64,000 nucleotides of DNA from a virus (Duplodnaviria; Heunggongvirae; Uroviricota; Caudoviricetes): IMG/VR virus record IMGVR_UViG_3300042922_000906, positions 40,054 to 104,053 of that record, one strand, 5' to 3'. The translations under genes and the position numbers were made by a program. The notes beneath the pieces are model-generated. The model made no database searches, was not told the origin of the DNA, and worked only from the letters and a program-made list of their open reading frames with translations. Numbering within the stretch: position 1 is the first letter of the stretch; the number at the start of each line of letters is the position of its first letter. Of the stretch, positions 10,146 through 40,383 are shown piece after piece.

Positions 10146-10175
10146 ATTGACAGTAAACTGGTAAAAATATATAAT
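10146..10175 (+). promoter_or_regulatory. sigma-A-type promoter (TTGACA, 18 nt spacer, TATAAT) with an upstream TTAACTAAAATATTATAAAATAAAT element
   Basis: Consensus hexamers. The upstream AT element also recurs at 15281 and 16331. Confidence 0.5.
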
Positions 10176-10486: not shown

Positions 10487-11023
10487 ATGAAAGCAACTGG
10501 AATAGTTAGACGTATAGACGATTTAGGAAGAGTTGTAATACCTAGAGAAACACGGAGAGCATTAAGAATTAAAGAAGGAGATCCTCTGGAGATTTTTATT
10601 GAAGATGGTGGAGTAATATTAAAAAAATACAGACCATTTCAAGATTTAATGGAATTTTCAGAGAAGTACGCAGAGTCTTTACATAAAACCTCTGGACATA
10701 TTTGTTTCATTACTGATAGAGATACAATAATTTCTGTAAATGGTACATCTAAAAGAGATTTTCTTGAAAAACCTATTAGTGAGAAGTTGGAAAATATTAT
10801 TGATGAAAGACATTTGTTTATCACAAATACCGAACAGATAAATATAGTTAATGGTCAGAGCTTGAATTTTCATTCTATCATAATAAAACCAATTATGTCT
10901 GAAGGTGAAACCTGTGGTTCAGTAATACTTGCAAGTACAGTTAATAATATAGTTTTTGGAGAAGTTGAAATTAAACTTGTTGAAAATGCAGCCGATTTTT
11001 TAGGTAAACAACTAGAAGATTAA
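10487..11023 (+). CDS. spoVT: SpoVT-like regulator (AbrB-type swapped-hairpin N-domain plus GAF-like C-domain)
   Basis: The N-terminus GIVRRIDDLGRVVIPRETRRALRIKEGDPLEIF is the AbrB/SpoVT DNA-binding fold. Total length 178 aa with a C-terminal sensory domain, matching SpoVT architecture. Confidence 0.75.
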   Translation: MKATGIVRRIDDLGRVVIPRETRRALRIKEGDPLEIFIEDGGVILKKYRPFQDLMEFSEKYAESLHKTSGHICFITDRDTIISVNGTSKRDFLEKPISEKLENIIDERHLFITNTEQINIVNGQSLNFHSIIIKPIMSEGETCGSVILASTVNNIVFGEVEIKLVENAADFLGKQLED

Positions 11024-12163: not shown

Positions 12164-13063
12164 ATGATATTGAACCAAAATAAACCTTTACCAGAGTTTG
12201 TAATAAATTTCTTAGACTATAAAAAGAATAATGAAAAATTAAGTGACAATACAATAATTGCTTATCAATTAGATATCTATTCTTTTTTAGAGTGGTTGAA
12301 AGAGTATTTCAATACTACTGAAGTATCTTTAAACTTGTTTAACAAATTAACCATTCAAGATGTAGTGAAATGGCAGCGAACACTAAAAAATCAAGCTTCA
12401 ACAGAAGGAAGAAAAATATCTAGCATAAGATTATTGTTTGATTACCTTAATAAATTTAAATTGGTTGATAATGATGTTATGCATAATATTAAGAAGCCTA
12501 AGATACCTAAAAAGCCAAGAAAACACTTGGATTTTGAAACCTCAAAAGAATTGATTCATGTAGCCGAGGTTGAAGGTAGTTTACGAGATGTCGCTATAAT
12601 CAAATTATTTTTGTATAGCGGTATGAGAATAAGCGAAATCACAAATCTTGACTTAGGTGATATAAAAGGTAATAGGGTATATATAAGAGCTGCCAAAGGT
12701 GAAAAAGATAGAATAGTCTATATTGACGAAGATGCAGTTCAGGCAATAAATAATTGGTTGGTAATAAGACCAAAAACAACATGTGATTCAATATTTGTTT
12801 TACATTACTTTAACAAAGAACCATATCGAATTACTGATGCATCAATAAGGAAGATGATTAAGAAATTTGCAGACATAATTGAAGTTGAATTTACTCCTCA
12901 TATCTTAAGACATACTTATGCAACAGATCAATTAGATGCTGGAACACCTTTACCATCAATTCAAAAAGCTTTAGGCCATAGTGATATAAAGACAACTCAA
13001 ATATATGCTCACACAACAGAAAAACAATTAATGCAAATGGCAGGAAAGGTAAAATACAAATAG
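12164..13063 (+). CDS. tyrosine site-specific recombinase / phage integrase (XerC/D-like)
   Basis: N-terminal SAM-like core-binding region. The C-terminal catalytic motifs HILRHTYAT...LGHSDIKTTQIYAH give the R...HxxR...Y tyrosine nucleophile arrangement. Confidence 0.85.
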   Translation: MILNQNKPLPEFVINFLDYKKNNEKLSDNTIIAYQLDIYSFLEWLKEYFNTTEVSLNLFNKLTIQDVVKWQRTLKNQASTEGRKISSIRLLFDYLNKFKLVDNDVMHNIKKPKIPKKPRKHLDFETSKELIHVAEVEGSLRDVAIIKLFLYSGMRISEITNLDLGDIKGNRVYIRAAKGEKDRIVYIDEDAVQAINNWLVIRPKTTCDSIFVLHYFNKEPYRITDASIRKMIKKFADIIEVEFTPHILRHTYATDQLDAGTPLPSIQKALGHSDIKTTQIYAHTTEKQLMQMAGKVKYK

Positions 13064-13295: not shown

Positions 13296-13692
13296 ATATG
13301 TCTTATGCGACGGAAGGGAAGTGTTTATATGATTGAATTTGATACACACATAGAAAAGAAAGACATAATAGAATTGGTAGTTATTGATGATGAGGTTGTT
13401 TTAAGCGCAGAGACCGATGATTAATTGTGCAATTTAAGAATAAGATAAAGGAGGAACAATACAATTGAAAGATTATTTAATCGGTTTTATTTCAGGAATT
13501 TTCCTGACATTTGGAATGCTGCTTTGGCTAGCTCATATAAGAATTTTGGGTATAGTTCTAATTTTTCTAGCATGGTTTTTAAGTGTAGTAGTTTTGGGAC
13601 ATTATAAATACATAAGAAAGGAAAATTAAATGAATTTTATTGACAAATTGGCAAATAAAAGTGCAATTTTAAAGAAAAAAGAATAAAAAATG

Positions 13693-13721
13693 TTGACAAA
13701 TTTTAATTACAATAATATAAT
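13693..13721 (+). promoter_or_regulatory. sigma-A-type promoter (TTGACA, 17 nt spacer, TATAAT)
   Basis: Consensus hexamers with the conserved spacer AATTTTAATTACAATAA. Confidence 0.55.
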
Positions 13722-13744
13722 ATAAAACAGGAGATATCGATTAA

Positions 13745-14248
13745 ATGTACAAATTAATGAAAAAGTTAGCAGGTATAATTGCTGCATACAAAGTAAATCG
13801 CTTAAAGGATTTCTCAACATTAGAAAATGCTTTGTTAAAAAAGAAAAAGAAGCATGTAAAAGTAACTAGAGAAGATGCGTTGTCTGTATATAGTTATATT
13901 TATACTGGATTATTATTAGAATTATTTATTTTATTTGTAATATCTATAATTGCAATTATTCTTAATATAATTATACCAACAATTGCAATACTAATACCTT
14001 TTTTAGTATTTAGGTTTATATTTAAAGGCAATCATTTAAATGGTTATTATAGGTGTTTAATATTTACAACAAGTTATATAATTCTTGCCGCCTTTATTTC
14101 AAGTCTAATAATACCAGCAAGTTTAAATTTATTGTTAAAATTTATTTGTTATGTTAGTATAGGGCTAGGATTAGAGTTGATTTCATTGACGAGCTGGTTT
14201 AATAAAATTTTAGATCAGATAAATAGATTTAATATTAATAAGACATAG
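13745..14248 (+). CDS. AgrB-like polytopic membrane protein (tentative)
   Basis: Four hydrophobic helices. A His-x6-Cys arrangement (KGNHLNGYYRC) follows TM2, as in the AgrB catalytic H77/C84 pair. Confidence 0.3.
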   Translation: MYKLMKKLAGIIAAYKVNRLKDFSTLENALLKKKKKHVKVTREDALSVYSYIYTGLLLELFILFVISIIAIILNIIIPTIAILIPFLVFRFIFKGNHLNGYYRCLIFTTSYIILAAFISSLIIPASLNLLLKFICYVSIGLGLELISLTSWFNKILDQINRFNINKT

Positions 14249-14267
14249 TTATTTGGGGGAAGAATAA

Positions 14268-15050
14268 ATGCAAGAGATATTATTAGATTTACGAGACATG
14301 TTATGCTTTTCTATACCAGAAGCTATTTTTATCACAATTATGACATATATTCTTTTAAAAAAGTATAATATGCTAGATAAGTATAAAATAAAATCAACCT
14401 TAATAAATTTATTATTTCCTGCATTAATTTCATCAATTGTATTAACTCTATTAGGACTTTTAAATATCGGCTTAATGGCAAAGATAATTGGCTTATTGGT
14501 ATTTTATTTAATATTACTATATTTAATCAGTTCAACATCATATCAAAAAATACATTGGTTAGGTTTAAAAGTGTTAATGAGTTTTATCACATCATTTTTT
14601 ATAGCAATGATGATTGAATATCTAAGTCTGCTTTTATTAATGACTCTTATAAAGATCGACCCGACGAAACTAATGATGAATGATGAGATGTTTTATACTA
14701 AGCTAACAACATCTTTAGTTTGGATAGTTATAGAAATATGTTTAATTTTCATTCTTTATTTTAAAAAGGATAATAAAATAAGCTATTTATTAAACATTGT
14801 ATTTAAAAACAAGAAGTTATTGTATTTTGGAATAGTTTTAATAACGATTAATATTTTGTTAATTCTTGAATTTATTAAATTAACTCTATATAACAATATA
14901 TTTGTAAATACAAGTATTAATGAACAAATTTGTGTAACATTAGGTATTGTATTAGTTCTACCATTATTGACTGTGCTTTTAATGAATTTTGTAGTATCTG
15001 CTTTAATTAAGCAACAAAATTACTATGAACAGTTATATCATTTAAAATGA
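14268..15050 (+). CDS. polytopic membrane protein (6-7 TM), possibly an AgrC-type sensor module lacking a kinase domain
   Basis: 260 aa, almost entirely hydrophobic helices. No H-box or ATP-binding motifs are present. Confidence 0.35.
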   Translation: MQEILLDLRDMLCFSIPEAIFITIMTYILLKKYNMLDKYKIKSTLINLLFPALISSIVLTLLGLLNIGLMAKIIGLLVFYLILLYLISSTSYQKIHWLGLKVLMSFITSFFIAMMIEYLSLLLLMTLIKIDPTKLMMNDEMFYTKLTTSLVWIVIEICLIFILYFKKDNKISYLLNIVFKNKKLLYFGIVLITINILLILEFIKLTLYNNIFVNTSINEQICVTLGIVLVLPLLTVLLMNFVVSALIKQQNYYEQLYHLK

Positions 15051-15090
15051 TATTTATATATAGCTGTTATTAAAATTTGGAGGTGGAAAA

Positions 15091-15183
15091 ATGGACGCAC
15101 TTTTAATCGAAGCAATAGTTGCTCAACCTGCTGATTGTTGGATTCTCTGGTATAAAGAAGAAACTCCAGATTGCTTGAAATAA
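15091..15183 (+). CDS. 30-aa Cys-containing peptide (candidate AgrD-like autoinducer precursor)
   Basis: GGAGGTGG SD lies 7 nt before the ATG. The peptide MDALLIEAIVAQPADCWILWYKEETPDCLK has an amphipathic N-terminus, a Cys-Trp-rich core and a charged tail. It is not in the ORF track because it is under 60 aa. Confidence 0.4.
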   Translation: MDALLIEAIVAQPADCWILWYKEETPDCLK

Positions 15184-15230
15184 CCCGAACTAAAATATTA
15201 TAGCAAAAATACATAAGGGTTAAATAAAAA

Positions 15231-15265
15231 CTCTAGGATAATTACCTAGAGTTTTTATTTTTTTT
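15231..15265 (+). terminator. Rho-independent terminator
   Basis: Stem CTCTAGG/CCTAGAG with a 7-nt loop, followed by TTTTTATTTTTTTT. Confidence 0.8.
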
Positions 15266-15304: not shown

Positions 15305-15334
15305 ATTGACATTTTGAAATTATTATAATATAAT
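15305..15334 (+). promoter_or_regulatory. sigma-A-type promoter (TTGACA, 18 nt spacer, TATAAT) with an upstream TTAACTAAAATATTATAAAATAAAT element
   Basis: Consensus hexamers. The same upstream element occurs at 10111. Confidence 0.55.
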
Positions 15335-15397: not shown

Positions 15398-16300
15398 ATG
15401 AAAACTTTTTATGACAAATTTAAATCATACAATAAACCGATCTACGAAAATAAAAATTGGATTGATATGAAAGAAGTATCCAGACTAGTTAATTTAGCCA
15501 AAGGTAATCGAAATACTTCTCAATTTCTAACAGATATGAATTTGACATGTGAAACAGAACAAATTATTGATATGATAAATGGCCGGTATAATTCTTGTAT
15601 AAGACTACATCACTTGAAAAAGATTGCAAAAGCATCTGAAGGAAGAGTGGATTTTGATCAGCTAAATGCTATATTTAAATTTATGGAAAATAATTCTTTG
15701 GATGAATTAAAGAATATTAATATCGAGCGTAGTGATATTTGTCAAGTTAATCTTGGCGAAGCGCTTGACAATGAGCATGGTGGCATAAAGATGTGCGTGG
15801 TTATTTCAAATAATAAAGGAAATGGTTCAAGTGCAACTTTTCAATTAATCCCTTTGTCTTCATCTATCGGGAAAAATTACATTCCTTCACATGTGCCTGT
15901 GGGTTTGGAATCAGGAATATTAAAACCTTCTGTAGCAATGATTGAACAACTTAGAGTTAAAACAAAGGCAAGTCTTTTATTTGATGGTGAGATAATTAAA
16001 GTCGGAAAAGTATCTGAAGCAACCATGATAAAAATAGAATCAGCGATTAAAAAGCAGTTTGGTATGATTAGTCTTAATTTTAATCCAAGATTTGCGGAAG
16101 AAATGGTAAGAGCAATATTAGGAGTTATGAATGTAGTTGAAGATGATGATAATCTTGTTATAGCTAAAAACCTCTTATGGAAAGATCTTGAAGCTTATTG
16201 TGCAGATTATGATAAGGATGCCAAATCAATTTTTAATGAGTTTACAACTAAAATTGCGCGCGGTGAACCTGTTTTTAAGAGATTCTGTCTTGTCGGCTGA
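15398..16300 (+). CDS. MazF/PemK-fold endoribonuclease-domain protein with N- and C-terminal extensions
   Basis: The central region GDICQVNLGEALDNEHGGIKMCVVISNN...FQLIPLSSS...PSHVPV parallels the MazF core (GDIvlvdF.P..GsEq.g.RPavVls...vvPiTs). Confidence 0.5.
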   Translation: MKTFYDKFKSYNKPIYENKNWIDMKEVSRLVNLAKGNRNTSQFLTDMNLTCETEQIIDMINGRYNSCIRLHHLKKIAKASEGRVDFDQLNAIFKFMENNSLDELKNINIERSDICQVNLGEALDNEHGGIKMCVVISNNKGNGSSATFQLIPLSSSIGKNYIPSHVPVGLESGILKPSVAMIEQLRVKTKASLLFDGEIIKVGKVSEATMIKIESAIKKQFGMISLNFNPRFAEEMVRAILGVMNVVEDDDNLVIAKNLLWKDLEAYCADYDKDAKSIFNEFTTKIARGEPVFKRFCLVG

Positions 16301-16438: not shown

Positions 16439-17764
16439 ATGAAAGCTAACAAAGAAGAACTTATAAATGTATTATATCCTGCAATAGAACGGTCAAGAAG
16501 AAACAATGAAGTAAAAGATGTAAATTATTTAAAAGATAAATTAGCAGAACATAATATAGGAATTGGAAAGGTTCAGGGTATTTATGACACAAATATTCCT
16601 TTAGAAACATTATCTAATGCCGACTTATACTTGTTTACTAAATATTTGTTTGAAACAACTAAAAATGAAACAATTAACATTACAAATTGGTTTTATGATG
16701 AAGAAATAAAAACTCATGATCAACATACTGAAGATGTATTTTATAAAGATAACAAGATTATTTTATATGATGTAAGTCAAACTTCGGAGTATGAATATTT
16801 AGTATCGAAAATGACTTATGTTGAAATGAGTAATATTATTAATCAGAAATTATTAACATATAATTATCGTACTCAGAGAGAAGCAAGAATAGTTTATTTT
16901 GGAAATGAATTTATTAAAAGACCTGAAGTAAAGTCAAATAAGATTATGGACATGTTTGAGATGATGAAAACAGGTTTTGAAGCCAATTTGATATCTCTTA
17001 ACATTCGTAAAATTGGGACAGAAAAATTTGTATATGATGAAAAGAAGCGAATTTTGATTATCGAAGTTGATAATGATAATACTTTTTTGGACATAATTGA
17101 TGGTTTTCATAGGTGGCTTGCAGCAACAGCTTGCATAATGAACAATCCAAGTAATCAAGGATATTTTCATGCTAAAATATATAATATGACAGAAAGTAAA
17201 GCACAAAGCTATTTAGCAAGAGAAGAGAAAGCATCACCAATGAATTTATCTCATGTTGCAGGTTATGATAATAGAGATGCTTATGTAACATTTACCAAAG
17301 ATATTAATTCTTATGGTGAGAATAGAAAAAGTAATGAATTATTTGGTATGATAGCGCTTGATGATATTGAGTATTTGTCACAGAATAAATATACTACTGT
17401 TGAGGTGTTTTCAAAAGGATTGAAGCATAATTTTAAATTTAAAGATATGAATGCCAGAGAATTAGGAAAGTTACAAGATTTTTTTGTTAAATATTTTAAT
17501 GAATTATTAGGTATTTTACAGGAGAAGTATTCAGGTGAAAATAGCGTTATCTTTGAAAAGAAAATTTTTATCGGTTATATCGCTTTGGGCAGCAAATTAA
17601 TAAACAAGAATGATTGGAAATTATTATTAGAGCAGGCGCTTTCTTCGATAGATTTTTCAAGATCGAGTGATTGGGAAAATATAGGTTTATTCAAAGATGA
17701 TGTTAATAATAGTAATGTGAAACTGATAAGTAATTATTTTAAGAAAGAAGTTGGTGTGGATTAA
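16439..17764 (+). CDS. ParB/Srx-fold (DGQHR / DUF262-like) domain protein
   Basis: TQREARIV (GERRxRA-like) followed by LDIIDGFHRWLAA (a DGxHR box). Length 441 aa. Confidence 0.4.
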   Translation: MKANKEELINVLYPAIERSRRNNEVKDVNYLKDKLAEHNIGIGKVQGIYDTNIPLETLSNADLYLFTKYLFETTKNETINITNWFYDEEIKTHDQHTEDVFYKDNKIILYDVSQTSEYEYLVSKMTYVEMSNIINQKLLTYNYRTQREARIVYFGNEFIKRPEVKSNKIMDMFEMMKTGFEANLISLNIRKIGTEKFVYDEKKRILIIEVDNDNTFLDIIDGFHRWLAATACIMNNPSNQGYFHAKIYNMTESKAQSYLAREEKASPMNLSHVAGYDNRDAYVTFTKDINSYGENRKSNELFGMIALDDIEYLSQNKYTTVEVFSKGLKHNFKFKDMNARELGKLQDFFVKYFNELLGILQEKYSGENSVIFEKKIFIGYIALGSKLINKNDWKLLLEQALSSIDFSRSSDWENIGLFKDDVNNSNVKLISNYFKKEVGVD

Positions 17765-18699
17765 TGTATAATAAAGAGATTAAGGAAAAGTTTATTAATG
17801 AACACTATAACACCGAAGAAAGTAAAAAAGTAGTTGAGTGTGCTTTTAATAATTATAGTAAAATTGAAGAACAATATGATACTGATCTATATCATTTCAA
17901 TTTTTATCAAAGAAATGAATTGCTTATGAATCTATCTTCGTCTAGTATAAAGGCAATAAGAAAAGATTATAATTATATTCAAAGTTATGTACGGTGGGCA
18001 GAAAATAGGGGAATGTGTCCTCTTAATATGGCTTTTATAGATTTGTCAACTAATGAATTAAAACAATTTGTTTCAAATGCAAAGAAAGATCAATTTATTA
18101 AAAACAGAGAAGAATTATATAATAATTTTTTACCTAAGATACATAATGTAATAGACAAGGCCATGATAATATTAATATATGAGGGTGTGCTAGGTAAGGA
18201 AGCTGTTGATCTAGTTAATTTTACTAAAGAGAATATAGAATTTGATAAACAACGATTTATATTTAATACGAAAAAGGGAACAAGAATTATTCCTAACATT
18301 GATCAGCAATCAATAGATATACTAAAAAAATCAATTAGTGAGACAATTTACGAACTAGACAATGGTAATTCTAATGCTAAAGCACCAACTAGAAATTTAG
18401 CTAATTCAGATTATATTGTAAGACCAATTATTGGTTTTGAAGATAAAATTAATAGAATGGGTGTTATAACTAAGTTTTCAAAAATAAAGATTTGGACTGA
18501 AAAACGGTATATAAAACCAAAAAGTATTCATTATTCAGGGATGTTTGATAAGTTAAGAAATATTGAAATTAGTGAAAAAAGAGATTTAGTTACTTATGAT
18601 TATGAAGATGTTTTAACATTATATGGATATAATGCAAAGCAATCAGCACATTTAAAATTGGATTATGAATATTTTTGTGAGATGTTTTACGGAGAATAA
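17764..18699 (+). CDS. hypothetical protein translationally coupled to the ParB-like gene (TAATG overlap)
   Basis: ORF of 311 aa whose start overlaps the upstream stop. Confidence 0.4.
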   Translation: MYNKEIKEKFINEHYNTEESKKVVECAFNNYSKIEEQYDTDLYHFNFYQRNELLMNLSSSSIKAIRKDYNYIQSYVRWAENRGMCPLNMAFIDLSTNELKQFVSNAKKDQFIKNREELYNNFLPKIHNVIDKAMIILIYEGVLGKEAVDLVNFTKENIEFDKQRFIFNTKKGTRIIPNIDQQSIDILKKSISETIYELDNGNSNAKAPTRNLANSDYIVRPIIGFEDKINRMGVITKFSKIKIWTEKRYIKPKSIHYSGMFDKLRNIEISEKRDLVTYDYEDVLTLYGYNAKQSAHLKLDYEYFCEMFYGE

Positions 18700-39078: not shown

Positions 39079-40383
39079 ATGAGTTATAACGCTTATATAA
39101 CAAAAATCAAGAATATAAGAAAACATACAAATGCAGACAGATTACAAGTAGGTGAATGTTTTGAAAACTTTGTTATTGTTAGTATGGATACACGAGACAA
39201 TGAACTAGGAGTGTACTTCCCAACTGATGGACGGTTAGGTACTGAATACTGTGAATCCAACAATCTACTAAGAAAGAAAGACGAAAATGGTAATAATATT
39301 GGCGGTTATTTAGAACCCGAAAAAAGACATATATCATCGTTGAAATTTCGTGGTGAAAAATCAGATGGTTTATTTATGCCACTAAAGAGCCTCGAAAACT
39401 TTTGTAATATTTCAGATTTAAAAGAAGGAGATATTATTACAACTTTAAATGGAACTTTAATATGTGAAAAATACATACCAAAATCTAATAGAAGAAATAA
39501 TGCTCTAACTAACAATAAAGAAAAGAAGAAGCTTATAGATAAAATATCTTATCCTATGTTTGAAGAACATATAGATACATCACAACTGGCATATAATTTG
39601 AATCAATTCAAACAGGGTGATTTATGTTATATAACTCTTAAAATGCATGGTACATCTCAAAGAACAGCTTATACTATTCAAGAGTTTCTAAAAAAAAGGA
39701 ATTTAATCCAAAGAATATTTAAGTTAAAAAATAAAATAAATAAGTCATGGCAATATGTTAGTGGCACAAGACGTTGTATTTTAATGAATTTTGATAATGG
39801 ATTTTATGGAAATGACTTGTTCAGAAAAACATTCCATGATTACTTTGTTGGGAAGTTATATAAGGGCGAAGAAGTGTTTTATGAAGTTGTTGGATATGTA
39901 AATGAAAATACTACCATCATGCCAGAATGCAATAATAAAAAAACCAATGATAAAGAATTTATCAAGCAATATGGAGAAACAACAAGATTTACATATGGAT
40001 GTGGTGTAGGTCAAAGTGATATTTATGTTTATAGAATAACCAAAACAGATGAAGATGGGAATATTGTTGAATATCCTTGGCATTTAGTCAAGTTGAGATG
40101 TGACCAAATGGGAGTTAAACATGTTCCAGAATTTGATAAATTTATATATTCTACTCAAGAAGATTTGATGAATCGAGTTAATGTATATGTAGATGGAACT
40201 GACCCAATAGGCAAAACTCATGTTAGAGAAGGTGTGGTTATAAGAATAGAAAACAGAGAAAAATTTTCTGCCTTTAAACATAAGAATTTTAATTTTAAAG
40301 TATTAGAAGGAATTATCAAAGCAAATGATGTTTTAGATATGGAGGAGGCTAATAGTGAAGAATTATCAACAAATAATGAATAG
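39079..40383 (+). CDS. RNA ligase (Rnl2-type nucleotidyltransferase motifs with an N-terminal OB-like domain)
   Basis: Motif I LKMHGTSQ (KxHG as in T4 Rnl2 KIHG), motif IV REGVVIRIEN (EGxV) and motif V AFKHKNF (K..K). The N-terminus IRKHTNADRLQVGEC is OB / tRNA-binding-like. Confidence 0.6.
   Translation: MSYNAYITKIKNIRKHTNADRLQVGECFENFVIVSMDTRDNELGVYFPTDGRLGTEYCESNNLLRKKDENGNNIGGYLEPEKRHISSLKFRGEKSDGLFMPLKSLENFCNISDLKEGDIITTLNGTLICEKYIPKSNRRNNALTNNKEKKKLIDKISYPMFEEHIDTSQLAYNLNQFKQGDLCYITLKMHGTSQRTAYTIQEFLKKRNLIQRIFKLKNKINKSWQYVSGTRRCILMNFDNGFYGNDLFRKTFHDYFVGKLYKGEEVFYEVVGYVNENTTIMPECNNKKTNDKEFIKQYGETTRFTYGCGVGQSDIYVYRITKTDEDGNIVEYPWHLVKLRCDQMGVKHVPEFDKFIYSTQEDLMNRVNVYVDGTDPIGKTHVREGVVIRIENREKFSAFKHKNFNFKVLEGIIKANDVLDMEEANSEELSTNNE

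Follow-up and report, generated by a model that had tools for sequence, protein, structure and literature searches.

Introduction

Phage-borne agr genes have been known since the description of the Clostridioides difficile phage phiCDHM1 (Hargreaves et al. 2014, PMC3901668), and the same work reported AgrB and AgrD together with membrane proteins without HATPase_C in the Brevibacillus phages Davies, Emery and Abouo. Among bacteria, agrBD operons of the Clostridium perfringens type are established quorum-sensing loci (PMC7300355). The C. perfringens operon itself has the order CPE1563-CPE1562-agrB-agrD; its two upstream hypothetical open reading frames (ORFs) are co-transcribed with the agr genes, and an agrB mutant was complemented only by a four-gene clone (PMC2706048). 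This agr locus has no two-component system of its own (PMC7300355). Here we analyze a stretch of 64,000 nucleotides (hereafter the window) from a virus of the class Caudoviricetes (IMG/VR record IMGVR_UViG_3300042922_000906, positions 40,054 to 104,053), which carries between positions 13693 and 15265 a cassette of three genes: agrB (gene 1), a gene for a membrane protein with seven predicted transmembrane (TM) helices that we call X (gene 2), and agrD (gene 3). An earlier note, made from the letters of this DNA alone, had proposed an Agr-like cassette with an orphan receptor-like protein, and had rightly stated that Agr genes occur in a Clostridioides phage. Of the three genes, two bear out the Agr reading, and the orphan receptor reading of X is replaced by a better-supported homology. 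We favor, at slightly better than even chances, the explanation that the operon makes an Agr-type cyclic peptide pheromone, with X as an accessory of its production and with the receptor encoded elsewhere.

Like the agr3 locus of phiCDHM1 (agrC-agrB-agrD), the cassette pairs a phage AgrB with an AgrD and has no response regulator, and the two share the AgrD layout [S/C]-x4-N-Q-P-x-x-P. The phiCDHM1 locus differs in coding for a 453-residue AgrC with a HATPase domain and a full-length AgrB of 197 residues, and in having no X-like or DUF5317 protein. The loci of Davies, Emery and Abouo resemble the cassette in combining a phage AgrB (172 residues in Davies), a putative AgrD of 39 residues and kinase-less polytopic membrane proteins. 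Given this precedent, the presence of such a protein beside phage agr genes is not new in itself, and its novelty had been overstated in the earlier note, although the proteins themselves are unrelated. In Davies, the two membrane proteins (gp44 and gp45, ~220 residues) lie upstream of agrB and have no detectable homology to X (<1% for both in hhalign comparisons). Furthermore, Davies AgrB keeps an ‘AP’ loop that the window protein lacks, and its agrD is followed by a weak LytTR-like gene, whereas none was seen in the window operon. The Davies cassette, gp44-gp48 (L018, 26243-28658), ends with the gene for this 121-residue protein, whose stand-alone LytTR match is weak (E = 0.0074). Its presence hints at a signaling route from kinase-less membrane proteins to LytTR in the Davies phage group.

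The AgrBDCA system of Staphylococcus aureus with its protease MroQ is comparable in the proposed removal of the AgrD tail by a His/Cys pair of AgrB, in a five-residue (thio)lactone ring and in the participation of a second membrane protein in maturation. It differs in several respects: the phage has neither AgrC nor AgrA at the cassette, X is devoid of the CPBP motifs of MroQ, and the phage AgrB has four TM segments instead of six. The leader and tail of the phage peptide are 15 and 10 residues long, compared with 24-25 and 14-15 residues in S. aureus.

Operon structure and transcription signals

The cassette opens on the plus strand with a sigma-70-type promoter, TTGACA-17 nt-TATAAT (13693..13721), matching the consensus at 12/12 positions. 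Perfect copies of this promoter occur seven times in the window (at 10147, 13693, 15306, 19737, 29094 on the minus strand, 31158 and 55457), compared with 0.07 expected from shuffled sequences. Thus, the copy at 13693-13721 represents a real promoter class of the phage rather than a chance match in AT-rich DNA. Three genes follow on the same strand: agrB (13745..14248, an ORF of 167 residues), X (14268..15050, 260 residues) and agrD (15091..15183, 30 residues, MDALLIEAIVAQPADCWILWYKEETPDCLK). They are separated by gaps of 19 and 40 nt, and each is preceded by a purine-rich Shine-Dalgarno sequence (GGAG, GGGGGA and GGAGGTGG, respectively). An intrinsic terminator on the plus strand (15222..15260), with a 16-bp stem, a 7-nt loop and a T-run (-18.4 kcal/mol by RNAfold), closes the operon. 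Promoter, terminator and a Shine-Dalgarno site for every gene make the cassette an autonomous transcription unit for the host polymerase. The signals named in the earlier note, namely a consensus promoter at 13693, a strong terminator at 15231, three genes between them and a strong Shine-Dalgarno sequence before the 30-residue ORF, were all found in place. An extended spacer (…TTGACAAnnTTnAAnTACAATAnTATAAT) is also common to several of the seven promoters, and this suggests that they form a distinct class of early promoters dependent on the host RNA polymerase.

Just upstream of the cassette promoter, a short plus-strand ORF of 18 residues (13630..13686, MNFIDKLANKSAILKKKE) resembles the N-terminus of AgrB in related phages. 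At 8/14 positions it is identical to the AgrB N-terminus of L015 and, likewise, to that of L016, a likeness rarely reached by chance: only 3 and 1, respectively, of the 127,912 six-frame 14-mers of the window score at least 7/14. This ORF is probably a relic of the 5' end of an ancestral agrB, cut off or displaced by the consensus promoter and a new start.

Gene 1 is a member of the AgrB family

Gene 1 codes for a bona fide AgrB-family protein. Residues 34-139 align with positions 8-110 of the 185 positions of the PF04647 (AgrB) profile, with a score of 54.3 bits against a cutoff of 23 (E = 1.4e-14), and the annotation of the Joint Genome Institute (JGI) names the gene AgrB as well. The motif NHLNGYYRC contains the pair H97-x6-C104, and R90 and G95 precede it. 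All four residues are invariant in 11 aligned sequences (the window, eight relatives and the AgrB proteins of phiCDHM1 and of Brevibacillus phage Davies), and they are in register with R70, G75, H77 and C84, which are reported to be required in S. aureus AgrB (PMC10196373). The initial description of gene 1 as AgrB-like, with four TM segments and a His/Cys pair of AgrB spacing, is therefore upheld by both the profile match and the alignments, and the pair is kept in every relative. We regard these positions as candidate catalytic residues, with cleavage and cyclization predicted from family membership.

With only ~4 TM segments, the protein does not have the six-TM topology of AgrB. It is missing ~50 residues, comprising the ‘AP’ loop and one TM helix, that are seen in canonical AgrB, in the long form of a sister phage clade, in phiCDHM1 and in Davies. 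One way to read this loss, together with the relic of an older agrB 5' end just upstream and the below-cutoff profile score of the window AgrD (see below), is that the cassette is a decaying passenger, in which a short AgrB would be unable to cyclize AgrD and the genes would persist by recent descent. We consider this highly improbable. Short AgrB proteins (163-179 residues) are full-length in the window, L013, L014, L015 and L016 (L011 was read incompletely), in lineages that are 28-51% identical to each other, and all of them keep the R/G/H/C residues and the last TM helix. Recurrence of the short form across such divergent lineages identifies it as a stable variant, not a pseudogene. In addition, all three ORFs of the cassette are intact, each with its ribosome-binding site, behind a perfect promoter.

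Gene 3 belongs to the AgrD lineage

Judged by its position and motif, gene 3 belongs to the AgrD lineage. The peptide consists of a 15-residue amphipathic leader (MDALLIEAIVAQPAD), a predicted ring CWILW and a tail YKEETPDCLK. We found agrD at the matching position in 11 further distinct loci; in two of these, the ORF had been missed by gene callers. The description of the 30-residue ORF as unannotated does not hold as a universal claim, since gene callers called it on three contigs with an identical cassette. The peptides from all 12 loci have a common motif, [C/S]-x4-[YFNH]-[QK]-[PE]-x-T-P-x-C-[LIV]-x, and wholly divergent leaders. Depending on the lineage, the residue that forms the ring is Cys or Ser; this alternation fits the known thiolactone and lactone autoinducing peptides (AIPs), in which Ser forms lactones (PMC12312760).

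In searches with the AgrD profile TIGR04223, the window peptide scored 16.7 bits (E = 0.0063), under the cutoff of 19. Its positional orthologues scored 24.2, 26.1, 29.5, 31.1, 26.7, 24.9 and 30.2 bits, and one was just under the cutoff at 18.7, so that 7/9 peptides tested pass. The layout is equal to that of phiCDHM1 AgrD (…S-VWYI-NQPKMPKSL) and to that of chromosomal Clostridium AgrDs (…C-xWxx-YQPEEPK[A/S/C]LRDE), some of which also have the tail Cys. The AgrD-type layout proposed from the single sequence is thus borne out by position, by motif and by the Cys/Ser alternation in its relatives. By likeness to the C. perfringens AIP [CLWFT], which is tailless (PMC7300355, PMC12312760), the product is predicted to be a CWILW thiolactone, to which a few exocyclic residues may be attached. 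The calculated [M+H]+ is 702.34 for the CWILW thiolactone, 817.37 for DCWILW and 888.41 for ADCWILW, and the tail YKEETPDCLK would have a mass (M) of 1224.57.

The predicted ring is very hydrophobic and Trp-rich, and the consensus promoter looks constitutive, with no sign of autoinduction. Both features would suit a cassette that makes an antagonistic or antimicrobial cyclic peptide, either a cross-inhibiting AIP directed against the host Agr system or a bacteriocin-like product, with X as the immunity protein. In staphylococci, Agr receptors are inhibited by AIPs other than their own, and peptide toxins commonly have polytopic immunity proteins encoded beside them. On the other hand, X has no CPBP/Abi immunity motifs and no Pfam match, and its relatives in bacteria are encoded on the chromosome within C. 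perfringens-type agrBD operons, a well-established kind of quorum-sensing locus (PMC7300355). We therefore think an antagonistic peptide quite improbable, and prefer a pheromone as the product of the cassette.

X is related to a membrane protein of clostridial agrBD operons

In a number of related phage loci, X is accompanied by DUF5317 (PF17248; for example L016 5450-5986 and L006 3600-4238). An alignment scan of species-representative genomes with DUF5317 identified 39 loci (L020-L058), mostly from Clostridium (C. gasigenes, C. tertium, C. nigeriense, C. sartagoforme, C. gallinarum and others) and from related metagenome-assembled genomes (MAGs). AgrB is encoded ~0.5 kb downstream of DUF5317 in 30/39 loci, and in most of these 30 it is followed by an AgrD of 41-47 residues. 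The gap between DUF5317 and AgrB holds an ORF for a membrane protein of ~150-170 residues with a ‘RAIPE[G/S]F’ motif in TM1. This protein, here called ‘mid’, falls outside all Pfam families, and its annotation reads ‘hypothetical protein’.

Profile-to-profile comparison of the X family with 17 ‘mid’ proteins (hhalign) gave a match of 94.2% with E = 1.1e-7 over 137 columns, aligning residues 9-164 of X with residues 9-145 of ‘mid’. The ‘IPE’ of TM1 is aligned between the two families, and E117 of X (present in ~94% of the X family) falls on an invariant Glu of ‘mid’. Because the match covers nearly the whole of ‘mid’, X can be described as a core of five TM helices (residues 9-164) followed by a phage-specific extension (residues 165-260) that contributes two more TM helices and a cytoplasmic helix. 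No agrCA genes lie next to agrBD in the three bacterial loci checked. The core of X is thus homologous to a protein of agrBD operons, and we read X as an accessory of peptide production. Its assignment to maturation or export of the peptide, drawn from gene neighborhood, has in our estimate about an even chance of being correct.

The bacterial order DUF5317-mid-agrB-agrD matches that of the four-gene operon of C. perfringens. The phage cassette resembles the C. perfringens-type operon in several respects. Both combine AgrB and AgrD with co-transcribed hypothetical membrane proteins (two in the bacterial operon, one in the phage), and no kinase or regulator gene adjoins either of them. The core and tail of AgrD follow C-x4-[H/Y]-Q-P-E-x-P, some bacterial AgrDs having a Cys in the tail (PKCLRDE), and the core of X is homologous to the ~155-residue protein that other Clostridium species encode in operons of this kind. 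In contrast to the bacterial operon, the order of the phage genes is rearranged, with agrB first and X directly before agrD, and DUF5317 is absent in the window clade. X is enlarged, AgrB is of the short four-TM form, AgrD has 30 residues with a 15-residue amphipathic leader, and the cassette is carried by a phage. In C. perfringens, the receptor is encoded elsewhere, and VirS/VirR has been proposed for this role.

The invariant residues of DUF5317 are Asp, His and Ser, including an ‘S-x-G-D’ motif. We found no paper in the literature that names DUF5317. The family may be a leader peptidase, and the idea that it could be a GxGD-type aspartyl peptidase comes from these invariant residues and this motif. 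In three of the bacterial loci, from C. gasigenes (L022 5941-7638), C. tertium (L034 5837-7594) and a Peptococcaceae MAG (L029 5811-7496), a GGDEF/HD-GYP protein is encoded directly 3' of agrD. These proteins have 561-585 residues and a polytopic N-terminus of ~190 residues, to which X shows no relationship (0.4% by hhalign). They may link the Agr peptide to cyclic di-GMP, or they may be candidate receptors.

The X family and the question of a receptor

No sequence match for X was found in Pfam, NCBIfam or the PDB, and no fold match to its model in the PDB. A word-indexed protein search with X and AgrB returned self-matches only, scans of the viral_contigs and genome_contigs collections with X gave no match, and sequence searches of the PDB with X, AgrB, the X profile and the DUF5317 profile yielded nothing except one chance match at E = 0.31. 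The family was recovered only by exhaustive HMMER search. It comprises 22 representatives, nearly all of 254-278 residues; the exceptions are a small number of shorter sequences, which are probably partial, and one repetitive protein of 1567 residues, which is likely spurious. All members with source information are metagenomic.

A structural model of X built with AlphaFold2 (AF2) from the family alignment (predicted local distance difference test, pLDDT, 81; predicted template modeling score, pTM, 0.67) has seven TM helices, the last of which runs on as a long C-terminal helix. Lys and Arg residues are concentrated on the odd-numbered loops and the C-terminus (11.2 across the family, compared with 2.2 on the other side), and by the positive-inside rule this bias places the N-terminus outside and the C-terminus inside. 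No kinase domain (HisKA/HATPase) was found in X or in any member of its family. All of this agrees with the initial description of gene 2 as a 260-residue protein with six to seven TM helices and no kinase. The conserved positions of the family lie in TM1 (P17-E18), cytoplasmic loop 1 (D37), TM4 (K101 and E117) and the C-terminal helix (‘QQxY’).

Two other candidate roles were rejected. X is not a hypervariable specificity determinant: its rate of divergence equals that of AgrB and of the flanking PemK-fusion gene. It is not a stand-in for the missing part of AgrB, as clade C keeps X beside a full-length AgrB. X also lacks the features of a protease of the CPBP/MroQ type: it has no Pfam match, the motifs EExxxR, FxxxH and HxxxN/D are absent, and no His or Arg is conserved at the required positions.

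A rival reading gives X a receptor role. Here X would be a kinase-less receptor or transducer that binds the cyclic peptide on its outer loops and passes the signal to a partner protein by way of the C-terminal helix and the conserved loops on the cytoplasmic side, either in the manner of membrane inhibitors of stand-alone LytTR regulators or by interfering with a host kinase of the AgrC/VirS type. Seven TM helices in an N-out/C-in orientation, with the last helix continuing into the cytoplasm, resemble the layout of the AgrC sensor module. The outer loops of X are variable, its cytoplasmic loops are conserved, and ‘QQxY’ is kept in the C-terminal helix. The Davies cassette, in which AgrB, AgrD and two kinase-less membrane proteins are encoded ahead of the LytTR-like protein, points in the same direction. 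The homology of X leads elsewhere, to the five-TM protein of bacterial producer-type agrBD operons, and X shows no detectable similarity to the membrane proteins of Davies. Nor does it resemble a degenerate AgrC: the hhalign comparison of the X profile with the sensor region of phiCDHM1 AgrC (residues 1-266) gave 0.3%, a result for one AgrC in a group whose sensors are very divergent. There is also no regulator or output domain inside the promoter-terminator unit, and X does not stand out as hypervariable beside AgrB or the neighboring genes. We found no positive evidence for the proposals that gene 2 is a receptor-like, kinase-less AgrC or that it acts as a sink for host autoinducer. A receptor function for X thus seems unlikely to us, and a part in producing the peptide remains the reading that we favor.

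Three layouts of the cassette in related phages

In the 12 distinct X loci, AgrB is encoded upstream and an AgrD-like ORF is found downstream of X wherever the contig extends far enough. Between clades, X proteins are only 25-42% identical, and neighbors 25-40%. The loci fall into three layouts. The first, short AgrB - X - AgrD with an AgrD of 30-31 residues, is seen in the window, L011, L013, L014 and L015 (the AgrD of L015 was incompletely read). The second, AgrB (179 residues) - DUF5317 - X - AgrD (38-41 residues), is seen in L016/L017 and in L012, a contig that begins inside DUF5317, so that agrB is not seen. The third, in L004-L010, has the same gene order with an AgrB of 228 residues and an AgrD of 39 residues. 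DUF5317 is therefore absent in the window clade and located directly 5' of X in L016/L017, L012 and L004-L010, and X is present whether or not DUF5317 is.

The presence of DUF5317 coincides with the type of AgrD leader in 12/12 loci: where it is present, the leader is long, hydrophobic and signal-peptide-like, and where it is absent, the leader is amphipathic and 15-16 residues long. As these loci represent only about five deep lineages, the correlation is suggestive and not statistically firm. The wider synteny is also shared by all X loci, with an integrase on one side of the cassette and, on the other, a PemK/MazF-fusion protein, a protein of ~445 residues (DndB-like in sister clades) and an MrpR-type recombinase.

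The phage and the genes around the cassette

The source record of the window is 140.8 kb long. The GC content is 28.7%. A 681-residue protein of the window is 69% identical to proteins of Bacillus phages of ~155-162 kb (BCP78, TsarBomba). Genes of the sporulation type code for a Spo0A-like protein (receiver and Spo0A_C), a SpoVT-like protein (10487-11023) and a DUF1256/YyaC-like protein. The window also codes for ClpX/ClpB-like proteins, a peptide deformylase, nicotinamide adenine dinucleotide (NAD) salvage enzymes (NAMPT and phosphoribosyl pyrophosphate (PRPP) synthetase), DNA and RNA ligases, several HNH endonucleases and a ThsB-like TIR protein. We conclude that the source is a large phage of ~141 kb that infects a low-GC, spore-forming anaerobe, the genus of which we leave unassigned. 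The cassette occurs base for base on three further metagenomic contigs (0-1 mismatch); being exact copies, these are uninformative about selection. Among 50,697 catalogued phages, there was no DNA or tblastn match to the cassette, AgrB, X or DUF5317.

Downstream of the operon, and behind its own perfect promoter (15306-15334), lies the gene for a 300-residue PemK/MazF-fusion protein (15398..16300), in which a PemK/MazF-like domain (residues 110-221) is flanked by N- and C-terminal regions without assignment. A PemK-domain gene follows agrD in all related phage loci that reach far enough, and some have a second small PemK gene 5' of agrB. Next come a 441-residue protein (16439..17764) that is DndB-like in sister loci and an MrpR-type tyrosine recombinase (17764..18699). 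A second integrase is encoded upstream of the cassette (12164..13063). In all related phages, the cassette is located between two recombinase genes.

Discussion

If the operon makes an Agr-type pheromone, family chemistry of AgrB and AgrD would predict the following steps. The short AgrB, using H97 and C104, would cleave AgrD between Trp20 and Tyr21, freeing the tail YKEETPDCLK, and would close a thiolactone between Cys16 and Trp20. X would be an accessory subunit for steps that AgrB does not do, that is, leader removal, passage of the peptide across the membrane, or both. According to reviews, AIP export and leader removal other than by MroQ are unexplained (PMC12312760, PMC10196373). The finished peptide would be detected by a receptor whose gene lies outside the operon: a host kinase of the VirS/AgrC type or a phage component. 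More speculatively, the signal might serve to bias sporulation or another collective behavior of the host population. Control over sporulation and toxins has been reported for clostridial Agr systems; together with the Spo0A- and SpoVT-like genes of the phage, this makes an influence on the host population the likely use.

Several observations weigh against this explanation. In S. aureus AgrB, mutants of the K129-131 region are reported to keep peptidase activity and lose AIP formation (PMC10196373); the loop and TM helix missing from the short AgrB match this region, so that cyclization by the window protein is a prediction. The window AgrD is the lower of the two peptides under the profile cutoff. 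The likening of CPE1562 and CPE1563 to ‘mid’ and DUF5317 is by position. Neither X nor its bacterial relatives have a catalytic motif that would tie them to processing or export, the accessory role being drawn from gene neighborhood. Conservation within X is highest in cytoplasmic loops 1 and 5 and TM1 and lowest in extracellular loops 2 and 4, and a conserved cytoplasmic face with variable outer loops would suit a receptor as well. Finally, the screen for a receptor covered 64 kb of the ~141-kb phage, with 25 of the 38 Pfam families listed, and could have missed a weak kinase or LytTR match.

While phage agr genes as a category are not new, the small family of seven-TM proteins described here, strictly linked to agrB and agrD and related to an unannotated membrane protein that accompanies agrBD and DUF5317 in many Clostridium chromosomes, is. 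X/‘mid’ and DUF5317 are candidates for AIP export and leader removal, or for an unrecognized receptor. It is possible, if rather doubtful, that the X family and its ~155-residue relatives represent a missing Agr component in clostridia, either leader-removal and export machinery acting with DUF5317 or a new kinase-less receptor, which the phage captured and enlarged to broadcast or read its own signal while steering sporulation through Spo0A and SpoVT. Also new are the conserved four-TM AgrB and the 30-residue AgrD, which constitute a minimal version of the system that could ease biochemical reconstitution. The location of the operon in a ~141-kb phage with Spo0A/SpoVT-like regulators, likewise new, suggests manipulation of sporulation decisions at the population level. 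The locus is chiefly of value in drawing attention to X/‘mid’ and DUF5317, two uncharacterized families of membrane proteins that are conserved partners of AgrBD both in clostridia and in the phages of clostridia.

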